From the UHGV virus genome UHGV-0141068: 28,359 nt of DNA; one strand, 5' to 3'. The notes under the pieces were generated by a model. It was not told the DNA's origin and searched no databases. It saw nothing but the letters and a program-made list of their open reading frames with translations. Positions within the stretch are counted from its first letter, which is position 1. Every line of letters begins with the position of its first letter. Both the position numbers and the translations under genes were made by a program. Positions 4,049 through 28,248 of this stretch are shown here, piece by piece. The stretch is from a virus.

Positions 4049-5254
4049 TTACTTCTCTGCAATCTTCAGCAGTTTGATGGCCTGCGAATCGACCAGCATT
4101 CCGCCGGTGCGCTTGGTGGTATAAAAACCGACAAACGGTTTATTGGTGTACGGGTCACGCAGAATGCGGGTGCCGATACGGTCAACGATGGTGTAACCCC
4201 GTTTGAAGTTACCAAATGCGATGGCTTTCGCATCCGCAGCAATATCCGGCATCTGTTCGTTTTCAGCAATACCGTACCCCAGCAGAGAAGAAGGCTGCCC
4301 CAGTTCCAGCCCCGGACGCCACAGATAGTTACCCTCGTTGTCTTTCAACAGACGAATGGCAAACAGGCTGTTGTTGTTCATCATGAACTTCGCGCCAGTG
4401 CGGTGTGCCTTACGCAGCGTGTAAATCAGTTTGATAATGGCGTCTGCGGTCACCGCAGTCGCTTCGCCGGATACAATATGCTGAAGTTTGCCGAACGCCC
4501 GGACCTTATCGGTTTCATCAGTGGATTCATACGCCAGGAACCCTTTCGGCTTCTTGGTGCCATCGCCTGAGGTAAAGGCAATTTCTTCCTGTTCGGCAAA
4601 TTCGGTTGCCAGCTCGCTGTTGATCCATGCTTCCACGTTGAAAAAGGCATCATCCAGCATTTTCTGGGTGGCCTGCGGGTTACCGTAGATTTCCCCCATG
4701 AAAGGTTCAATCAGGCCCAGTTTTGAGGTGGCAGTCTGGGAGCGCGCGTCAGTCTCGCCAACCCATCCGGAAGCCGTGCCGCCCAGATTCACCAGTTTTT
4801 TGTAGTCGGAACCACCAATGGTGATCACCGTGGCTTCCTGACGCATCACCACTTCATCTTTCAGCAAGGTCAGAATGTTGCGATCCAGCGCTTCCGGCAC
4901 GGCATAGCCGCCGTCTTCATCGGTGCCCACCTGTAATGCCTTGCGCTCCAGATCGCGCAGACCATCTTCACGGCCTTTACGCAGGAAGCCCACAAACGCT
5001 TCTTTATGCTCGGTGGTCAGTTTATTTTGCGCACCACCTGCCGGACGTTTCAGCTCAAGCAGCTCTTTTTCAAGATCGCTTTTGAGATTTTCCAGCTCGC
5101 TGAGTTTTCCGTTCAGGGTTTCCACCTGCCCGGCAAGTTTGCCTTTTTCCTGCTCAATCGCCTCAACGCGCTTGTCGTTCTTTGCTTTGAAGTCGTCAAA
5201 CTTCTGCTGCAGCTCCTGCGCGACCTGTTCGACATCTTTAATATCAACCGCCAT
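4049..5254 (-). CDS. major capsid protein, HK97 family
   Basis: 401 aa with coiled-coil N-terminal delta-like region followed by HK97-fold-like body; follows the protease gene. Confidence 0.85.
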   Translation of the reverse strand: MAVDIKDVEQVAQELQQKFDDFKAKNDKRVEAIEQEKGKLAGQVETLNGKLSELENLKSDLEKELLELKRPAGGAQNKLTTEHKEAFVGFLRKGREDGLRDLERKALQVGTDEDGGYAVPEALDRNILTLLKDEVVMRQEATVITIGGSDYKKLVNLGGTASGWVGETDARSQTATSKLGLIEPFMGEIYGNPQATQKMLDDAFFNVEAWINSELATEFAEQEEIAFTSGDGTKKPKGFLAYESTDETDKVRAFGKLQHIVSGEATAVTADAIIKLIYTLRKAHRTGAKFMMNNNSLFAIRLLKDNEGNYLWRPGLELGQPSSLLGYGIAENEQMPDIAADAKAIAFGNFKRGYTIVDRIGTRILRDPYTNKPFVGFYTTKRTGGMLVDSQAIKLLKIAEK

Positions 5255-5268
5255 CGTATTTCTCCTGA

Positions 5269-5955
5269 TTAGAAGTTCAGATTTTTCAGTGCATTCAGTG
5301 CAGAGCCCACATCCTCAGCGTCGCGCAGGGACAGTGCGCCATAGCCCCCGGCCATGAATGCTTTGGCCTGGGTACGGGAGAGTCCGACATCACGCAGGAC
5401 TCTTTCGATTTTTTTCTGTTCGGGGATTTCCCCGCGGGCCAGTGCGTTCTTGACGTCGCTGATCCGCGCCTCGTCGTTAGACGGGAACGTCACCAGGCTG
5501 ACTTCCCAGAGGTCGATTTCTTTCAGCAGAAAGGCTTCTTTGCTCCGGTCGTATTCCCAGTCTTTCAGGACGTACCCAATAGAAAGGCCGGTTAACGAAC
5601 CGGCCTTCATGTGTGCATGTGCGCGTTTTGCGAGGGGATCATCATCAATAAGCAACCGTCCCCTGACGTAAAGCCCGACATCGTCTTCCTTCATTTCGGT
5701 GTAAACACCGATGGGTTCATCCATGCGGTGCTGCCAGAGCAGCGCAGGTAACGCTTTTCTGTCACTCCACGCCCGCAGGGAAGCAGCAAATGCCCCGGAC
5801 ATCACCACATCATCGTGGCTGTCCTTTACACCAAAGACGGAGCCATACCCTTCAAACTCACCGGAGTCACTGACAGATTTCAGACTCAGCGGTACATCAA
5901 GACGTTGTTTCGTCTGCATTGGCGTTATCCTTCTGCTTACCGGCTTTACTGCCAT
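5269..5955 (-). CDS. prohead protease (HK97 family)
   Basis: 228 aa between portal and capsid genes; true start may be internal because the ORF overlaps portal by 59 nt. Confidence 0.75.
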   Translation of the reverse strand: MAVKPVSRRITPMQTKQRLDVPLSLKSVSDSGEFEGYGSVFGVKDSHDDVVMSGAFAASLRAWSDRKALPALLWQHRMDEPIGVYTEMKEDDVGLYVRGRLLIDDDPLAKRAHAHMKAGSLTGLSIGYVLKDWEYDRSKEAFLLKEIDLWEVSLVTFPSNDEARISDVKNALARGEIPEQKKIERVLRDVGLSRTQAKAFMAGGYGALSLRDAEDVGSALNALKNLNF

Positions 5956-12003: not shown

Positions 12004-12021
12004 TGATGATTTTATAATAAT

Positions 12022-12044
12022 AAAGGCCGTTCGTTACGGCCTTT
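12022..12044. terminator. hairpin with flanking A/T runs (possible bidirectional terminator)
   Basis: AAAGGCCG-TTCGTTA-CGGCCTTT between the acidic moron gene and the holin ORF. Confidence 0.45.
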
Positions 12045-12055
12045 ATTATTGATAT

Positions 12056-22565: not shown

Positions 22566-22915
22566 TGGAACCATACAGCCTCACGCTAGATGAGGCCTGT
22601 CATTTTCTCAAGATATCCAGACCGACTGCCATTAACTGGATACGCACAGGGCGTCTGCAGGCAACACGCAAAGATCCCACTAAGAATAAATCTCCTTACC
22701 TCACAACACGACAAGCCTGCATTGCGGCGCTTCAGTCTCCGCTGCATACTGTCCAGGTGAGCGCGGGTGATGGCATAACAGAGGAAAGAAAATGTCACTC
22801 TTCCGCAGAGGTGAAATATGGTACGCCAGTTTCACATTGCCGAACGGTAAAAGATTTAAACAGTCTCTTGGAACAAAGGACAAAAGGCAGGCGACAGAAC
22901 TCCATGACAAGCTAA
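22565..22915 (+). CDS. xis: excisionase (P22 Xis-like, AlpA-type HTH)
   Basis: 116 aa from ATG 22565; [36 protein letters not shown]; 3' end overlaps integrase start. Confidence 0.8.
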
Positions 22916-23955
22916 AGGCTGAAGCATGGCGGGTCAGCAAACTTGGTGAAATTCCTGATATAACGTTCGAGGAAGCGTGTGTCAGGTGGCTTGAAGAGAA
23001 AGCACATAAAAAATCACTGGACGATGACAAAAGCCGGATCGGATTCTGGCTTCAACATTTCGCAGGAATGCAACTAAGAGACATTACTGAATCAAAAATT
23101 TATTCAGCAATGCAGAAAATGACGAACCGGCGTCATGAGGAAAACTGGAAACTCAGGGCAGAAGCATGCAGAAAAAAAGGGAAACCTGTTCCAGAATACA
23201 CGCCAAAACCAGCGTCCGTTGCAACGAAGGCTACGCATCTTTCATTTATAAAGGCCCTGCTAAGAGCCGCAGAGCGTGAATGGAAAATGCTGGATAAGGC
23301 ACCAATTATTAAAGTGCCTCAACCAAAGAATAAACGGATCCGCTGGCTGGAGCCTCATGAAGCACAAAGGCTGATTGATGAATGTCCGGAGCCATTAAAG
23401 TCTGTTGTTGAATTTGCACTTGCAACAGGCTTAAGACGCTCGAACATCATCAACCTTGAATGGCAACAAATAGACATGCAGCGCCGGGTGGCATGGATAA
23501 ACCCGGAAGAGAGTAAATCAAACCGCGCAATTGGCGTTGCGCTGAATGATACTGCATGTCGCGTATTGAAAAAACAAATCGGGAATCATCACCGTTGGGT
23601 ATTTGTGTATAAGGAAAGCTGTACCAAACCAGACGGAACGAAAGCGCCAACAGTCAGGAAGATGCGGTATGACGCAAACATAGCCTGGAAAGCGGCGCTG
23701 AGACGAGCAGGTATTGATGATTTCAGATTTCACGACTTGAGACACACCTGGGCAAGTTGGCTGGTTCAAGCCGGAGTCCCGTTATCAGTGTTACAGGAAA
23801 TGGGAGGCTGGGAGTCTATCGAAATGGTTCGTCGATATGCTCACCTCGCACCTAATCACCTTACCGAACACGCACGGCAAATAGACTCGATTCTGAACCC
23901 ATCGGTCCCAAATTTGTCCCAGTCAAGAAATAAGGAAGGTACTAATGATGTGTAA
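22792..23955 (+). CDS. int: tyrosine integrase, P22-type
   Basis: 387 aa; [15 protein letters not shown]-terminus and C-terminal R...HxxR...Y catalytic region (HDLRHTWAS...MVRRYAHL); adjacent to tRNA-Thr-derived att core. Confidence 0.9.
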
Positions 23956-23969
23956 CTTATTGATTTAAA

Positions 23970-24021
23970 TGGTGCCGATAATAGGAGTCGAACCTACGAC
24001 CTTCGCATTACGAATGCGAAG
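23970..24021 (-). other. attachment-site core: 3' fragment of a tRNA-Thr(CGU) gene (not a complete tRNA)
   Basis: Reverse complement reads anticodon stem-loop (TCGCA-TTCGTAA-TGCGA, anticodon CGT), T-arm GGTTCGACTCC and acceptor 3' strand ending CCA; no D-arm or 5' acceptor strand upstream. Confidence 0.75.
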
Positions 24022-24103
24022 TTTTTATATTTTAACTGCTTGAACAACCATCAGAAATCACAAATTTATCATTTTAAATCATAATATTAAAACAAAAAAC
24101 CTG

Positions 24104-24129
24104 TTGATGTAAATTGATGAGTGTTGATG
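24104..24129 (+). repeat. three TTGATG direct repeats at 10-bp phasing upstream of integrase
   Basis: TTGATG at 24104, 24114, 24124; further TTGAT/ATCAA copies at 25508-25537 just after the integrase stop. Confidence 0.5.
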
Positions 24130-24201
24130 TTTATCCTTTCAATTTACTTACACCAGCCGTTACATTACTGTAAACCGTAATCCCCAACAGGAACCCTAAA
24201 A

Positions 24202-25521
24202 ATGGCGCTTTCAAGACAAAAACTAACCTTCGAACGAATTCGAAGATTTACTTTACCTGAAGGGAAAAACCAAGTTTTCCTTTGGGATACGGACGTAACA
24301 AGCTTGGCATGTCGAGCAACTCGTGGAGCAAAAGCCTTTGTATTCCAAAGCCTGTATGCGGGAAAAACCCTTCGCATGACCATTGGCAACATTAACGATT
24401 GGAGGATTGATGATGCGAGGGCCGAAGCCAGGCGACTGCAAACATTAATCGATACTGGGATAGATCCGCGTATAGCTAAGGCGGAAAAAATTGCTGAAGC
24501 GGAATCACAGCAGGCTGAATCTCGTAAAACGAAGGCAACCTTTTCAAGCGCTTGGGAAGATTATCTTGATGAATTGAGAACCGGAATCAGCGCAAAAACT
24601 AAACGCCCCTACTCTGCACGCTACATTGCCGATCACGTTAACTTGTCCAGTCGTGGAGGCGAAAGTAAAAAAAGAGGCCGGGGCCCAACCTCACCTGGGC
24701 CACTGGCTAGCCTGCTCGACCGACCATTATCAGAACTAACACCAGAGAACATTGCCGAATGGCTAAGTACAGAGAGACAAAATCGGCCTACCGTCACTGC
24801 TCATGCCTACCGTCTGTTGCGTGCATTCATCAAATGGGCTAATTACCAGAAAAAATATCAGGGAATAATCGATGGCGATCTTGCACAAGATCATAACGTG
24901 AGAAAAATGGTTCCAATATCAGCGAGCAAAGCGGGAGATTGCTTACAAAAAGAACAGCTCAAAAGCTGGTTCAGTGCCGTGCGTAGCCTCAATAATCCCA
25001 TTGCATCAGCCTATCTCCAAGTGCTTTTGCTCACCGGTGCACGGCGTGAAGAAATTTCCTCACTTCGCTGGTCTGACATAGATTTCAAATGGTCAAGCAT
25101 GAGAATTAAAGACAAGATCGAAGGCGAGCGAATTATCCCCCTCACTCCCTATGTTTCTGACTTGTTACGCTCACTGATGGAGATCCCCAATCGTGGTACA
25201 AACGAGGAGAATTGGGTTTTCAGAAGTAACAGCAAAAGTGGCAAAATTATTGAACCGCGTTCAGCACATAATAGAGCATTAACTCGCGCGGAGTTACCAC
25301 ATATCAGCTTGCACGGATTGCGCCGTAGTTTTGGGACCCTCGCTGAATGGGTCGAAGTACCAACAGGTATTGTTGCGCAGATTATGGGCCATAAGCCTAG
25401 CGCTCTTGCTGAAAAGCACTATCGCCGCCGTCCATTAGATTTGCTAAGAAAATGGCATGAAAAAGTTGAATTATGGATCTTAGAAGAAGCAAAAATAAAA
25501 AACAACGTTGATAAGCGTTGA
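24202..25521 (+). CDS. tyrosine integrase, P4 type
   Basis: 439 aa; N-terminal arm-binding-like region, C-terminal catalytic R..HGLRRS..Y region (LHGLRRSFGT, HY near the end). Confidence 0.85.
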   Translation: MALSRQKLTFERIRRFTLPEGKNQVFLWDTDVTSLACRATRGAKAFVFQSLYAGKTLRMTIGNINDWRIDDARAEARRLQTLIDTGIDPRIAKAEKIAEAESQQAESRKTKATFSSAWEDYLDELRTGISAKTKRPYSARYIADHVNLSSRGGESKKRGRGPTSPGPLASLLDRPLSELTPENIAEWLSTERQNRPTVTAHAYRLLRAFIKWANYQKKYQGIIDGDLAQDHNVRKMVPISASKAGDCLQKEQLKSWFSAVRSLNNPIASAYLQVLLLTGARREEISSLRWSDIDFKWSSMRIKDKIEGERIIPLTPYVSDLLRSLMEIPNRGTNEENWVFRSNSKSGKIIEPRSAHNRALTRAELPHISLHGLRRSFGTLAEWVEVPTGIVAQIMGHKPSALAEKHYRRRPLDLLRKWHEKVELWILEEAKIKNNVDKR

Positions 25522-25635
25522 TTTTATCAAATATCAACAACTTACATAAAATCACATGTGTTGACAGAAATTTTTTTTCAGTTATCTTTTATTACTGCTA
25601 ACTACATTCACTCACTAAGCAGGAGATTAACTACA

Positions 25636-26061
25636 GTGACTAACCCAATAACTGTATCAAGAGAAGACCGAAGTGCGGAAATCAGAGCGAGATGGGGTTT
25701 ACATCCGACTAAAAACAAAAGTTCTAATTTTTGGGAAACAACAATTCAGCGTTTTAATAATAGTAGTACTGACCGAATACTACCTCTTTGGCACCGTGTT
25801 TCAAAACTTTTAGTTGCTATTAGGAATGTAGTCAATACTATAACATGCCTTTTTCCACCAAAGGGGAATACTTCCCGCTCACGCCGAAGTTCAACAACGT
25901 CATCAAAAAACTCATCATCATCTTCATCGGATGGTAGTAGTAGCGACCCCGATCCCGATAGAGACCCCATATTCACCCCTTTTCATTTCATTCTTTCATC
26001 TCTGTTAAAAACAATGATCGTCTTATTTGCCCACATATCAAATGTTGGGGTGATGAAATGA
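25636..26061 (+). CDS. Ser-rich hypothetical protein with hydrophobic C-terminus
   Basis: GTG at 25636 with AGGAG RBS 10 nt upstream; low-complexity S/D stretch; stop overlaps AlpA-like start; candidate -35 TTGACA at 25561. Confidence 0.35.
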   Translation: MTNPITVSREDRSAEIRARWGLHPTKNKSSNFWETTIQRFNNSSTDRILPLWHRVSKLLVAIRNVVNTITCLFPPKGNTSRSRRSSTTSSKNSSSSSSDGSSSDPDPDRDPIFTPFHFILSSLLKTMIVLFAHISNVGVMK

Positions 26062-26279
26062 GCGATATCAAACATCAAAAACCCTCTCAGTCACAACTAA
26101 TTTCTACCCGCGAGTTAGCTAATATTATTGGCTATGAAGTACAAACTATTCGAGCTTGGCTTTGCAAAGACAAACTGCCTAATGGTTTACCGCGACCGAA
26201 GAAAATTAAAAACCGACACTATTGGTCACGTAAAGACATTGATAGATACCTATTAACCTTCTCAGTATATAGTAACTAA
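26058..26279 (+). CDS. AlpA-family HTH regulator / excisionase-like
   Basis: 73 aa; LISTRELANIIGYEVQTIRAWLCKDKLP HTH typical of AlpA/Vis-type proteins. Confidence 0.7.
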   Translation: MSDIKHQKPSQSQLISTRELANIIGYEVQTIRAWLCKDKLPNGLPRPKKIKNRHYWSRKDIDRYLLTFSVYSN

Positions 26280-26290
26280 TAGAGGCCTCC

Positions 26291-26316
26291 CCCGGCTATT
26301 CTAAAGAATAGCCGGG
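26291..26316 (+). other. perfect 11-bp palindrome (terminator-like hairpin or operator)
   Basis: CCCGGCTATTC-TAAA-GAATAGCCGGG between AlpA-like and RHH-protein genes; weak T-tract. Confidence 0.5.
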
Positions 26317-26401
26317 TTAGTTAATACAAACCTTCCATTAACAATGGGGGGAGATTAATACTATTTATCACATCTCACATTAACAAAATTCAAGGTCACA
26401 T

Positions 26402-27166
26402 ATGAAAAAACGCATCACTTTCAGCGTAAACAATAGTTCTACTATTGATGCAATTGACGACTATAGCAATGCAAAAGGATACTCCAGGTCAGAGGTGATA
26501 TCATTTTTATTAAACGCCACAGTCCCAGCATTGAATAAAATAACATCGCAATATCATATAGCTCAAACTTTGGAGTCAACATTAGGCTGTATTTTTGAAG
26601 AGAAGGTCCCGTCAATAGCACGGGGGGAGCCAAAATTAACTTACGAAGAGTTTTTTCATTCCGTCTGGAACACTCACATTCGACACCGGAACGAGGTTGT
26701 CGATCAAGATTTTTATGCGCACAAAATACCTCATGATAAGATGGGTAAGAGCGAAAAAAAATTAATTCATGAAAAGCTCTCATACATTATAAAAAGTTTC
26801 AATGTAAAAAAAGCAATTTTTATTTACACAGATCGGCGCGTGAACCACAAACATCTCATTGCAGGAGGGTTATCTAATATCATACTGATAAAGGAAACAG
26901 TCTACGATGGTTGTTTTTTTGATTTGAGCAGCATTGTGATTATGCCAATCTTTGAACTTATTACATTTGGAGTTGAAGCAGTATTGAAAAGAAATAAAAC
27001 TCCCCCTAAACAATCATGCTATTGCTGGATACCAATTTATTACACAAATGATCTAGCGGTAATGGTCCCTGTGATTGCCGAAGGCGATACACCTCAAAAG
27101 GCGATGAAAGGAGGAGATGCCATCATTATTAACCCCTTTAACGGTGAAGTAAGCCATACTTTCTGA
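26402..27166 (+). CDS. RHH-domain fusion protein of unknown function
   Basis: 254 aa; N-terminus (KKRITFSVNNSSTIDAIDDYSNAKGYSRSEVISFLL) looks like a ribbon-helix-helix; about 200-aa C-terminal domain unrecognised; AT-rich. Confidence 0.55.
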   Translation: MKKRITFSVNNSSTIDAIDDYSNAKGYSRSEVISFLLNATVPALNKITSQYHIAQTLESTLGCIFEEKVPSIARGEPKLTYEEFFHSVWNTHIRHRNEVVDQDFYAHKIPHDKMGKSEKKLIHEKLSYIIKSFNVKKAIFIYTDRRVNHKHLIAGGLSNIILIKETVYDGCFFDLSSIVIMPIFELITFGVEAVLKRNKTPPKQSCYCWIPIYYTNDLAVMVPVIAEGDTPQKAMKGGDAIIINPFNGEVSHTF

Positions 27167-27248: not shown

Positions 27249-27425
27249 ATGCCTACTAACAAAGCAAAATCAAAGAAAATTCTAGGAAGGCCTGAAGGAA
27301 GTAAATATTCCCATTTAATTCAGAGTGAGAAGGCTAAGCATTACTCTCAATCCAAGGTGGCAAAGATCTTAGGAATAAGTATTTCCACGGTAAAAAGACA
27401 CTGGGATAACGGCATCTTTGGGTGA
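27249..27425 (+). CDS. small HTH protein
   Basis: 58-aa ORF below ORF-track cutoff; GAGGG RBS 7 nt upstream; SKVAKILGISISTVKRHW helix-turn-helix. Confidence 0.45.
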   Translation: MPTNKAKSKKILGRPEGSKYSHLIQSEKAKHYSQSKVAKILGISISTVKRHWDNGIFG

Positions 27426-27627
27426 TTATAATTGCAGAGTTGCTTTTTAATTATTTTACTGCATGGGTAATGGGTTGATAACAAGTTTTATTGTTGGAAA
27501 GGTATTATATAACAGTCATTACTATTAATAGTTAATTAATATAACTAACCACAGACATTCAGCTATGTCTGATCATATTACTATATACGGCTATCCAAAG
27601 CCGTAGGGCTAACGACAGGATCGAAAC

Positions 27628-28248
27628 ATGGAATTATATCATGGTTCCCATGGTGAGCATGTGCTCGCCTATAAAAAACATATTGAACGAGTCGTCAATG
27701 ATGCTATCAGTGAATTCCCCAGAACAATGGCGTTACGTGTTGATGTTCATTATCCACCCATTTTAGACAGAGGTGACACTGTTTGCTGTTTTCCTAATCT
27801 AGAGCCTGGTGCCATATCCCGTTTCCGTAATGCATTAAATGCCATGTTGGAGGCCAATGAGAGAACCAGAGCAGCTAACGGCAAAAGAATATATCCAAAC
27901 CGTGTTCGTCATGTTTGGGCACGGGAGTTTTCCGAAGAAGGAAAATGTCACTTTCACCTTGGTCTTTTTTTTAACAAAGATGCTTATTACCATTTAGGTG
28001 ATTATGAGGCTGAAAGAAATTTAAGGATGATGATTGTAAGAGCATGGTATAGCGCACTGGGATTGGAACTGGATGATTATCCGGGATTGGTTCACTACCC
28101 TGAAAATTGTCGTTATATTTTAGACGTCAATGATTTTAACTTTGAAGGAGAATACAATAAATTACTGAATCGTCTCGACTACCTAGCTAAACTCGATACA
28201 AAAGCATATGGAGATGGCGACCGTAGCTTCGGCTGCAGTCGCGGGTAA
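27628..28248 (+). CDS. YagK/YfjJ-family protein
   Basis: 206 aa; family typical of CP4-type cryptic elements, assigned from memory of conserved regions. Confidence 0.55.
   Translation: MELYHGSHGEHVLAYKKHIERVVNDAISEFPRTMALRVDVHYPPILDRGDTVCCFPNLEPGAISRFRNALNAMLEANERTRAANGKRIYPNRVRHVWAREFSEEGKCHFHLGLFFNKDAYYHLGDYEAERNLRMMIVRAWYSALGLELDDYPGLVHYPENCRYILDVNDFNFEGEYNKLLNRLDYLAKLDTKAYGDGDRSFGCSRG

Follow-up and report, generated by a model that had tools for sequence, protein, structure and literature searches.

The gene yagM of Escherichia coli K-12 lies in the CP4-6 cryptic prophage, is counted among the y-ome genes and encodes a protein of family PF27701 (UCP007319). A literature search found no functional study of PF27701, UCP007319 or yagM, and the gene surfaced only in screens and as a terminator RNA: a persister screen picked up its deletion (PMC5845583), a screen of the ASKA library yielded yagM clones as candidates (PMC8228696), and yagM RNA is reported to be among the strongest Rho-dependent terminators (PMC12133298). 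In an rpoZ mutant the yagM, yagN, yagL and intF transcripts fall together (PMC5811629), which, taken with the terminator RNA, fits co-regulation and silencing of an AT-rich core. Pseudomonas islands at tmRNA sites have been described with a core of intY, alpA, a helix-turn-helix (HTH) protein and an inovirus Gp2-like protein (bioRxiv 10.1101/2024.08.29.610337). Here we have analysed an open reading frame (ORF) starting at an ATG at positions 26402..27166 of the plus strand of UHGV virus genome UHGV-0141068, the whole 28,359-nucleotide stretch of which is called the window. The ORF encodes a 254-residue “hypothetical protein” (WP_008321066.1). Sequence comparison identifies it as a gene of the yagM type, carried by a CP4-6-like island that occupies a thrW-type attachment site and adjoins a lambdoid prophage.

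The encoded protein aligned with K-12 YagM over 249 of its 254 residues with 32% identity (pairwise BLASTP, E 2e-43). A tblastn search of plasmid records retrieved F' plasmids bearing the K-12 lac-region chromosome, which matched at yagM (32% identity, 98% of the query). All 22 database homologues carry PF27701. The Pfam copy used for scanning did not include the PF27701 model, so that the window protein was not scored directly against this family, which accounts for the lack of a Pfam match for the ORF. No above-threshold match was obtained for the protein in Pfam, NCBIfam, PHROGs or PADLOC, nor any match in a phage genome collection, and when 29 family members were compared with Pfam only DUF6364 was returned, below threshold and in nine of them. 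The family is small, with 22 clusters at 90% identity among 5.8 billion proteins, and a profile search of 1.84 billion proteins found the YagM family only, with 51 representatives at 50% identity. Its members come from Enterobacterales plus Aeromonas. Hence, the ORF is almost certainly a diverged member of the catalogued, uncharacterised YagM/UCP007319 family. Besides the full-length homology, the window and K-12 loci have in common a ribbon-helix-helix (RHH) N-terminus followed by a C-terminal domain, the gene order and a hairpin between ykgV and yagM. They differ in that K-12 YagM is annotated with 284 residues and an RHH segment beginning at residue 37, that yagL is cut to its HTH in the window, that the two hairpins are unrelated in sequence, and that the cargo is not the same (a sucrose operon, among others).

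The position of the gene was compared across about 50 YagM loci collected from genomes, metagenomes and IMG/VR, onto which six window proteins were mapped. The locus searches were built on one alignment (A1); a wider alignment (A2) has no conserved block. The loci covered more than ten genera, namely Escherichia, Kluyvera, Serratia, Buttiauxella, Scandinavium, Pectobacterium, Salmonella, Erwinia, Pantoea, Providencia, Proteus and others. Wherever the sequence extended far enough, the YagM-like gene was followed by a gene for an HTH protein and then by a YagK-like gene, and in one large branch it was preceded by the same types of integrase, yagN and ykgV. The order in the window (thrW fragment-int-yagN-ykgV-yagM-yagL-yagK) matches the CP4-6 core, which in K-12 reads intF-yagN-ykgV-yagM-yagL-(IS5), and places the ORF between the AlpA-type gene and the yagL/yagK-type genes. 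Beyond yagK the cargo varies by locus and includes type I restriction-modification, OLD/UvrD-type and SMC-like genes; loci of the window type carry an ATP-binding protein and a sucrose operon there. Since the position is constant while the content beyond yagK varies, the gene belongs to the fixed island core, and its status as backbone of CP4-6-type islands seems to us near certain on these comparisons. A preliminary description of this DNA had taken it for integrative-element cargo, a view that the conserved int-yagN-ykgV-yagM-yagL-yagK arrangement does not sustain. The Pseudomonas islands mentioned above resemble this organisation in combining an integrase, AlpA, an HTH protein and a Gp2-like HUH protein in a core with variable defence cargo (bioRxiv 10.1101/2024.08.29.610337). 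They differ in host, attachment site and gene order, and the passages of that preprint retrieved by term search make no mention of a YagM-type RHH gene.

The preliminary description had also proposed an RHH-like N-terminus fused to a larger unrecognised domain, and this proposal held when profiles were searched. The predicted RHH DNA-binding domain covers approximately residues 1-45 (26402..26536, plus strand) and consists of a strand (KRITFSV), helix A, an S-R-S N-cap and helix B, the last being prolonged into a long helix that ends near residue 67. A profile built from the first 50 residues of 23 members had CopG as its top PDB match, aligned end to end with an E-value of 8.7e-4, and the full-length profile searched against PDB sequences returned CopG only (E 0.16). 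The profile match is significant and assigns the N-terminus to the CopG/Arc/MetJ RHH superfamily. The remainder is a family-specific alpha/beta domain of about 175 residues (approximately residues 76-254; 26627..27163, plus strand), for which no recognisable relative, known fold, toxin signature or defence signature was found. Many of its polar residues look invariant among close relatives (H107, K136, T143, R145, Y213 and others). When distant members were included in an alignment of 29 sequences, D174 and G190 alone stayed near-invariant in this domain, whereas S28 and S30 of the RHH domain remained conserved. The domain is thus probably not catalytic, and most likely serves in oligomerisation and/or in the binding of a partner or a signal.

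RHH domains joined to a further domain are not unusual, NikR, PutA and Mnt being examples. In NikR the RHH domain is followed by a C-terminal ferredoxin-like, ACT-type domain for tetramerisation and ligand binding; Mnt and PutA are looser parallels, and all of these are analogies and not a matter of membership. The C-terminal domain of the window protein showed no sequence similarity and no significant structural similarity to that of NikR, and it has no conserved metal ligands. CopG and the ParD-type antitoxins are, in contrast, stand-alone repressors or antitoxins of 45-90 residues, the antitoxins being encoded with a cognate toxin, whereas the RHH domain in the window carries a 175-residue alpha/beta domain and has no toxin partner.

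These comparisons bear on the idea, raised in the preliminary description, of a self-regulated effector or a fused toxin-antitoxin-like module, in which a ParD-like RHH antitoxin would be joined to a novel toxic C-terminal domain. Toxin-antitoxin modules sit beside resolvase genes in Tn3-family elements, and a YagM-like gene adjoins a resolvase gene on a small plasmid. The islands carry defence cargo, and the recovery of the K-12 yagM deletion in the persister screen (PMC5845583) could be read in the same direction. Against this, no toxin partner was found for the ORF protein, nor any domain with the fold or family assignment of a recognised toxin, PADLOC, Pfam, NCBIfam and PHROGs returned no match, catalytic residues are not conserved across the family, the gene occupies the fixed backbone and not the variable cargo region, and the recovery of yagM clones from the ASKA library (PMC8228696) suggests that expression is tolerated. 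With RHH fusions being common enough and the gene belonging to the backbone, we regard this explanation as very unlikely.

The ORF is preceded by a perfect palindrome, CCCGGCTATTCT-AA-AGAATAGCCGGG, at 26291..26316 of the plus strand (arms 26291-26302 and 26305-26316). Its 12-nt arms are 100% complementary and separated by a 2-nt spacer, which is equivalent to an 11-bp stem closed by a TAAA loop and agrees with the 11-bp perfect palindrome noted in the preliminary description. The centroid free energy was -19.9 kcal/mol (z = -4.5), and none of 200 shuffled sequences folded as well. The window contains a single copy of the palindrome, where chance predicts none, and a perfect inverted repeat with arms of at least 11 nt appeared in 9 of 200 block shuffles of the window. 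It begins 12 nt past the stop codon of the ykgV-like gene (26279) and finishes 85 nt before the ATG of the ORF.

A perfect or near-perfect hairpin was present just after the stop codon in every locus with an upstream gene of the ykgV (HTH_17) type. Across these loci the outer half-site GCTATTCT/AGAATAGC is common, the inner stem differs, and the half-sites are spaced by 2, 10, 11 or 14 nt with a filler that is always self-complementary. The Kluyvera hairpin (CCCAGCTATTCT-aa-AGAATAGCTGGG) has a compensatory G:C to A:T change on both arms and the Salmonella one (AGAGGGCTGTTCTGCC-tgac-GGCAGAACAGCCCTCT) a compensatory A:T to G:C change within the motif, and further variants were found in Erwinia (GCTATTCTGCATC-atca-GATGCAGAATAGC), in Pectobacterium (TTGCTATTTTTCTA-tcat-TAGAAAAATAGCAA) and in locus L045 (...GCTATTCTGA-tgaatag-TCAGAATAGC...). 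Folding energies of the variants ranged from -15 to -33 kcal/mol. The hairpin of Enterobacter wuhouensis contains two G.T pairs and folds with -24.9 kcal/mol on the plus strand versus -18.9 kcal/mol on the minus strand; that G.T pairs are tolerated on the plus strand only agrees with an RNA transcribed in sense orientation. Between ykgV and yagM of K-12 the corresponding site holds a 9-bp hairpin of unrelated sequence. No such hairpin was found in the YagM loci with a PF05930-type AlpA gene upstream (Providencia, Proteus, Pantoea and Salmonella contig L056) or on the small plasmid. Its presence only after ykgV-type genes indicates that the hairpin goes with the upstream gene and not with YagM.

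These data permitted weighing the palindrome as an RHH operator for autoregulation, as the preliminary description had implied, with two RHH dimers bound on two GCTATTCT half-sites. RHH proteins commonly bind inverted repeats, and NikR recognises two half-sites 16 bp apart. A perfect palindrome upstream of the gene would suit such a role, as would the occurrence of GCTATTCT in loci whose YagM proteins are just 37-49% identical to that of the window. The spacing of 2, 10, 11 or 14 nt is nevertheless not fixed, and, together with the self-complementary filler, it points to selection on hairpin formation rather than on duplex half-sites at a set distance. The site is also 85-111 nt away from the ATG and right beside the stop codon of the preceding gene, many YagM loci lack it, and it does not recur elsewhere in the island; the half-site GCTATTCT is not enriched, as 15 matches (at most one mismatch) were counted over the whole window where chance predicts 20. 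Thus, the palindrome is probably not an RHH operator, and autoregulation through it appears distinctly unlikely to us. Most likely, it forms a 3' RNA stem-loop of the ykgV-like transcript, with a role in attenuation, stabilisation or weak or non-canonical termination. It resembles an intrinsic (Rho-independent) terminator in having a stable stem that includes G:C pairs and comes soon after a stop codon. No proper U-rich tract follows the stem, the tail TTAGTTAA having four T in eight positions, the terminator scan made no call, and the tails of the orthologous hairpins are also poor.

Between the hairpin and the ATG there is an 18-nt direct repeat at 26327-26344 and 26369-26386 (CAAACCTTCCATTAACAA and CACATCTCACATTAACAA), the copies being 78% identical and 42 nt apart. 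Its proximal copy lies in a block conserved among close lineages (TTTATCACAT.T.ACATTAAC.AAA.TCAAGG), a candidate promoter or operator region. An AAGG is placed 8 nt upstream of the ATG. The AT-rich character reported for this region was confirmed, with a GC content of 0.363 in 26001-27000 versus 0.53-0.58 in the prophage part of the window.

The gene downstream of the ORF (27249..27425, plus strand) encodes a 58-residue, resolvase-derived YagL remnant made up of a GRP hinge and a C-terminal HTH. YagL-type proteins and an active resolvase align with it over their last 55 residues; it also matched positions 151-201 of the 254 of a PHROG annotated as DNA invertase, and gave sub-threshold matches to Pfam HTH_7 and similar models. 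In most loci the YagL-type gene encodes 184-232 residues, with a weak Resolvase-domain match and a C-terminal HTH_7, whereas in the window lineage and in Kluyvera, Serratia, Buttiauxella and Scandinavium it is reduced to the GRP hinge and the HTH, both well conserved. The YagL-type copies considered included those at L057 (K-12) 4774-5472, L003 6778-7362, L002 6956-7528 and L007 3237-3791. When the island copies were compared with a genuine resolvase, the catalytic Ser and Arg were not conserved, which characterises the YagL-type proteins, as judged from their sequences, as catalytically degenerate derivatives of serine resolvases.

The next gene (27628..28248, plus strand) encodes a 206-residue HUH nuclease or Rep-like protein of the YagK/YfjJ type (“inovirus Gp2 family”; Pfam YagK_YfjJ_C, E 5.3e-52). 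Its H108-x-H110 and Y185-L-x-K188 motifs are invariant, as expected for rolling-circle Rep-like nucleases of the HUH/YxxK kind, and no solved structure matching it by sequence was found. Two short hairpins occur in a 200-nt AT-rich intergenic stretch upstream of this yagK-like gene, at 27553-27572 (CAGACAT-tcagct-ATGTCTG) and 27590-27607 (ACGGCT-atccaa-AGCCGT); these could have arisen by chance, or could serve in regulation or as part of an origin.

With an HUH nuclease in the core, a second explanation of the palindrome was considered, in which YagM and YagL would be specificity or architectural partners of YagK and the hairpin a recognition and nick site on single-stranded DNA (ori/oriT) for rolling-circle replication or mobilisation of the island after its excision. 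The conserved order hairpin, RHH gene, HTH gene and HUH gene, the invariant HUH and YxxK motifs of YagK, and the strict complementarity with the conserved lower stem GCTATTCT, as for a protein-recognised hairpin, are consistent with such an arrangement. It also recalls the relaxosome RHH proteins TraY, TrwA, NikA and MbeC, which are encoded next to oriT and an HUH relaxase, in that an inverted repeat adjoins an RHH gene and the gene for an HUH nuclease follows downstream. YagK differs in being small and Rep-like and in carrying no recognised assignment to a relaxase family, there are no conjugation or mobilisation genes nearby, and the hairpin is not universal in the family. Many loci (Providencia, Proteus, Pantoea and Salmonella contig L056) keep the YagM-YagL-YagK triad without the hairpin and that of K-12 is unrelated, so that the hairpin is not an obligatory partner of the triad. 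Moreover, a loop of 2-4 nt is small for an origin nicked in the loop, the G.T wobbles of locus L017 favour a plus-strand RNA, and a ColE1-type plasmid has a YagM-like gene and a resolvase without YagK. Overall, we judge this explanation unlikely. A related possibility is an undescribed three-protein DNA-processing machine that replicates or mobilises excised CP4-6-type islands, with the dead resolvase YagL as a DNA-binding subunit, YagK as the HUH component, and YagM recognising the origin, which might be the conserved GCTATTCT hairpin where a lineage has one. We hold this possibility to be similarly doubtful.

The plasmid in question is a 4.1-kb circular Providencia plasmid (L055, NZ_CP114799.1, 4136 bp) with a lipoprotein gene, an active resolvase gene (Pfam E 1e-33), an adjoining YagM-like gene and nothing more. 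Its gene content indicates that a pair of the YagM/resolvase type can travel as a unit, and speaks for YagM and YagL as partners. About 500 bp of its non-coding sequence showed approximately 93% identity to sequence common to more than 300 small plasmids and are read here as a putative ColE1-type origin; no RNA family was found in this stretch with Rfam. YagM as the Rep of this plasmid was considered and rejected, the shared stretch being read as the origin. A centromere-binding partition or stability protein for the excised circle, similar to ParG or omega, was also weighed. RHH centromere-binding proteins such as ParG and omega exist, and the gene stands on the small plasmid beside a resolvase of the multimer-resolution type. 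The conserved core lacks a ParA-type or other partition nucleoside triphosphatase and there are no iterated centromere-like repeats near the gene, and we consider a partition function highly improbable.

We therefore return to the reading that we favour, by a modest degree, namely that the ORF encodes a DNA-binding regulator or accessory factor of the yagL-yagK module in the core of a CP4-6-like island; for a regulatory role as such, our judgement is about evenly balanced. RHH dimers of the YagM-type protein would bind DNA of the island core and would be joined into higher oligomers by way of the long helix together with the C-terminal domain. The bound protein could then control or assist the yagL-yagK module in its expression and/or in DNA processing. 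It would probably autoregulate as well, for which the upstream palindrome would not be needed, and the 3' stem-loop of the ykgV-like gene may limit or stabilise read-through into yagM.

Several observations weigh against these proposals. For the RHH domain, the single-sequence matches were below the curated cut-offs (DUF6364, 18.2 versus 27.3 bits; aCcr1, 17.4 versus 60), and the monomer AlphaFold2 model has no RHH beta-strand, residues 1-6 having a predicted local distance difference test score below 50 and no strand preceding the helix at 12-25. As for its putative targets, no repeated operator-like motif was found beyond the weak 18-nt direct repeat (78% identity), and a consensus scan gave no promoter immediately upstream of the ORF. 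The hairpin, in turn, has no adequate U-tract and was not called in the terminator scan, termination being only one of several possible roles at the RNA level, and the conserved half-site GCTATTCT implies some sequence-specific recognition, so that a protein might recognise the hairpin.

The location of the gene in a second integrative element, as stated in the preliminary description, was borne out by the sequence to its left. From position 1 to approximately 23955 the window is a lambdoid prophage, the last gene of which is its own integrase (22792-23955). A 52-nt segment at 23970..24021 of the minus strand corresponds to the 3' half of a tRNA-Thr(CGU) and reads as acceptor, T-arm and anticodon stem-loop; no complete tRNA was found there by ARAGORN. 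This thrW fragment resembles K-12 ptwF, and 23952-24232 aligned at 81% with the K-12 stretch upstream of intF, in which the thrW fragment lies at the CP4-6 end. The fragment in the window is what remains of an attachment site and defines the second element's left end. With the lambdoid-prophage integrase on one side and the integrase of the CP4-6-type island on the other, its position indicates that the two elements abut at one tRNA-derived attachment site in tandem occupancy. The right end of the window showed 99-100% identity to a handful of E. coli chromosomes, and the ORF itself (WP_008321066.1) is carried by only 14 of 5426 complete E. coli genomes.

The island integrase is an IntF-like, P4-type tyrosine integrase of 439 residues (24202..25521, plus strand; Pfam Arm-DNA-bind_3, E 1.7e-10, and Phage_integrase, E 2.7e-18), with 72-100% identity to the integrases of the related loci. 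An identical integrase is given in RefSeq as a pseudogene with an internal stop (NZ_CP026399; window 24127-25521). From the ATG at 24202 the Arm-DNA-binding and catalytic domains are complete, and the “internal stop” is probably an artefact of extending the gene model upstream, as was also done for K-12 intF. It is followed by a YagN-like ORF (25558..26061, plus strand) with a mechanical length of 167 residues and 31% identity to K-12 YagN. The alignment begins at residue 27, and the counterparts at this position elsewhere are called with 132-153 residues. A promoter-like TTGACA-16-TATCTT at 25561-25588 falls inside the mechanically called 5' end, and translation probably begins some 26 codons further in. 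The centre of the protein is of low complexity and rich in Ser, Asp and Pro (SSTTSSKNSSSSSSDGSSSDPDPDRDP), as it is in K-12 YagN. Its stop codon overlaps the ATG of the ykgV-like gene (ATGA), which encodes a 73-residue AlpA-type HTH protein (26058..26279, plus strand; Pfam HTH_17, E 2.7e-6). This protein matched the PHROG “excisionase and transcriptional regulator” (E 3.5e-6), was 66% identical to K-12 YkgV, the sequence of which was taken from PMC6001520, and is a putative excisionase or regulator.

Two further perfect hairpins were noted in the prophage part of the window. The one at 12016-12050 has 15-nt arms (AATAATAAAGGCCGT-tcgtt-ACGGCCTTTATTATT) with A- and T-rich flanks and looks like a bidirectional terminator; the other, at 5584-5607, has 10-nt arms (AAGGCCGGTT-aacg-AACCGGCCTT).

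For the window itself the outcome is a negative one: the gene is very probably no new toxin or defence module, and the palindrome probably does not serve it as an operator. For the y-ome family, yagM gains a predicted domain architecture, with an RHH DNA-binding domain followed by a family-specific domain, and a genomic role as a backbone gene of CP4-6-type thrW islands. The comparison also allowed recognition of a triad in which yagM, the gene for a resolvase-derived HTH protein and that for an HUH nuclease travel together. Since these islands hold defence systems and metabolic cargo, it would be useful to know the core genes that control their maintenance or mobility.

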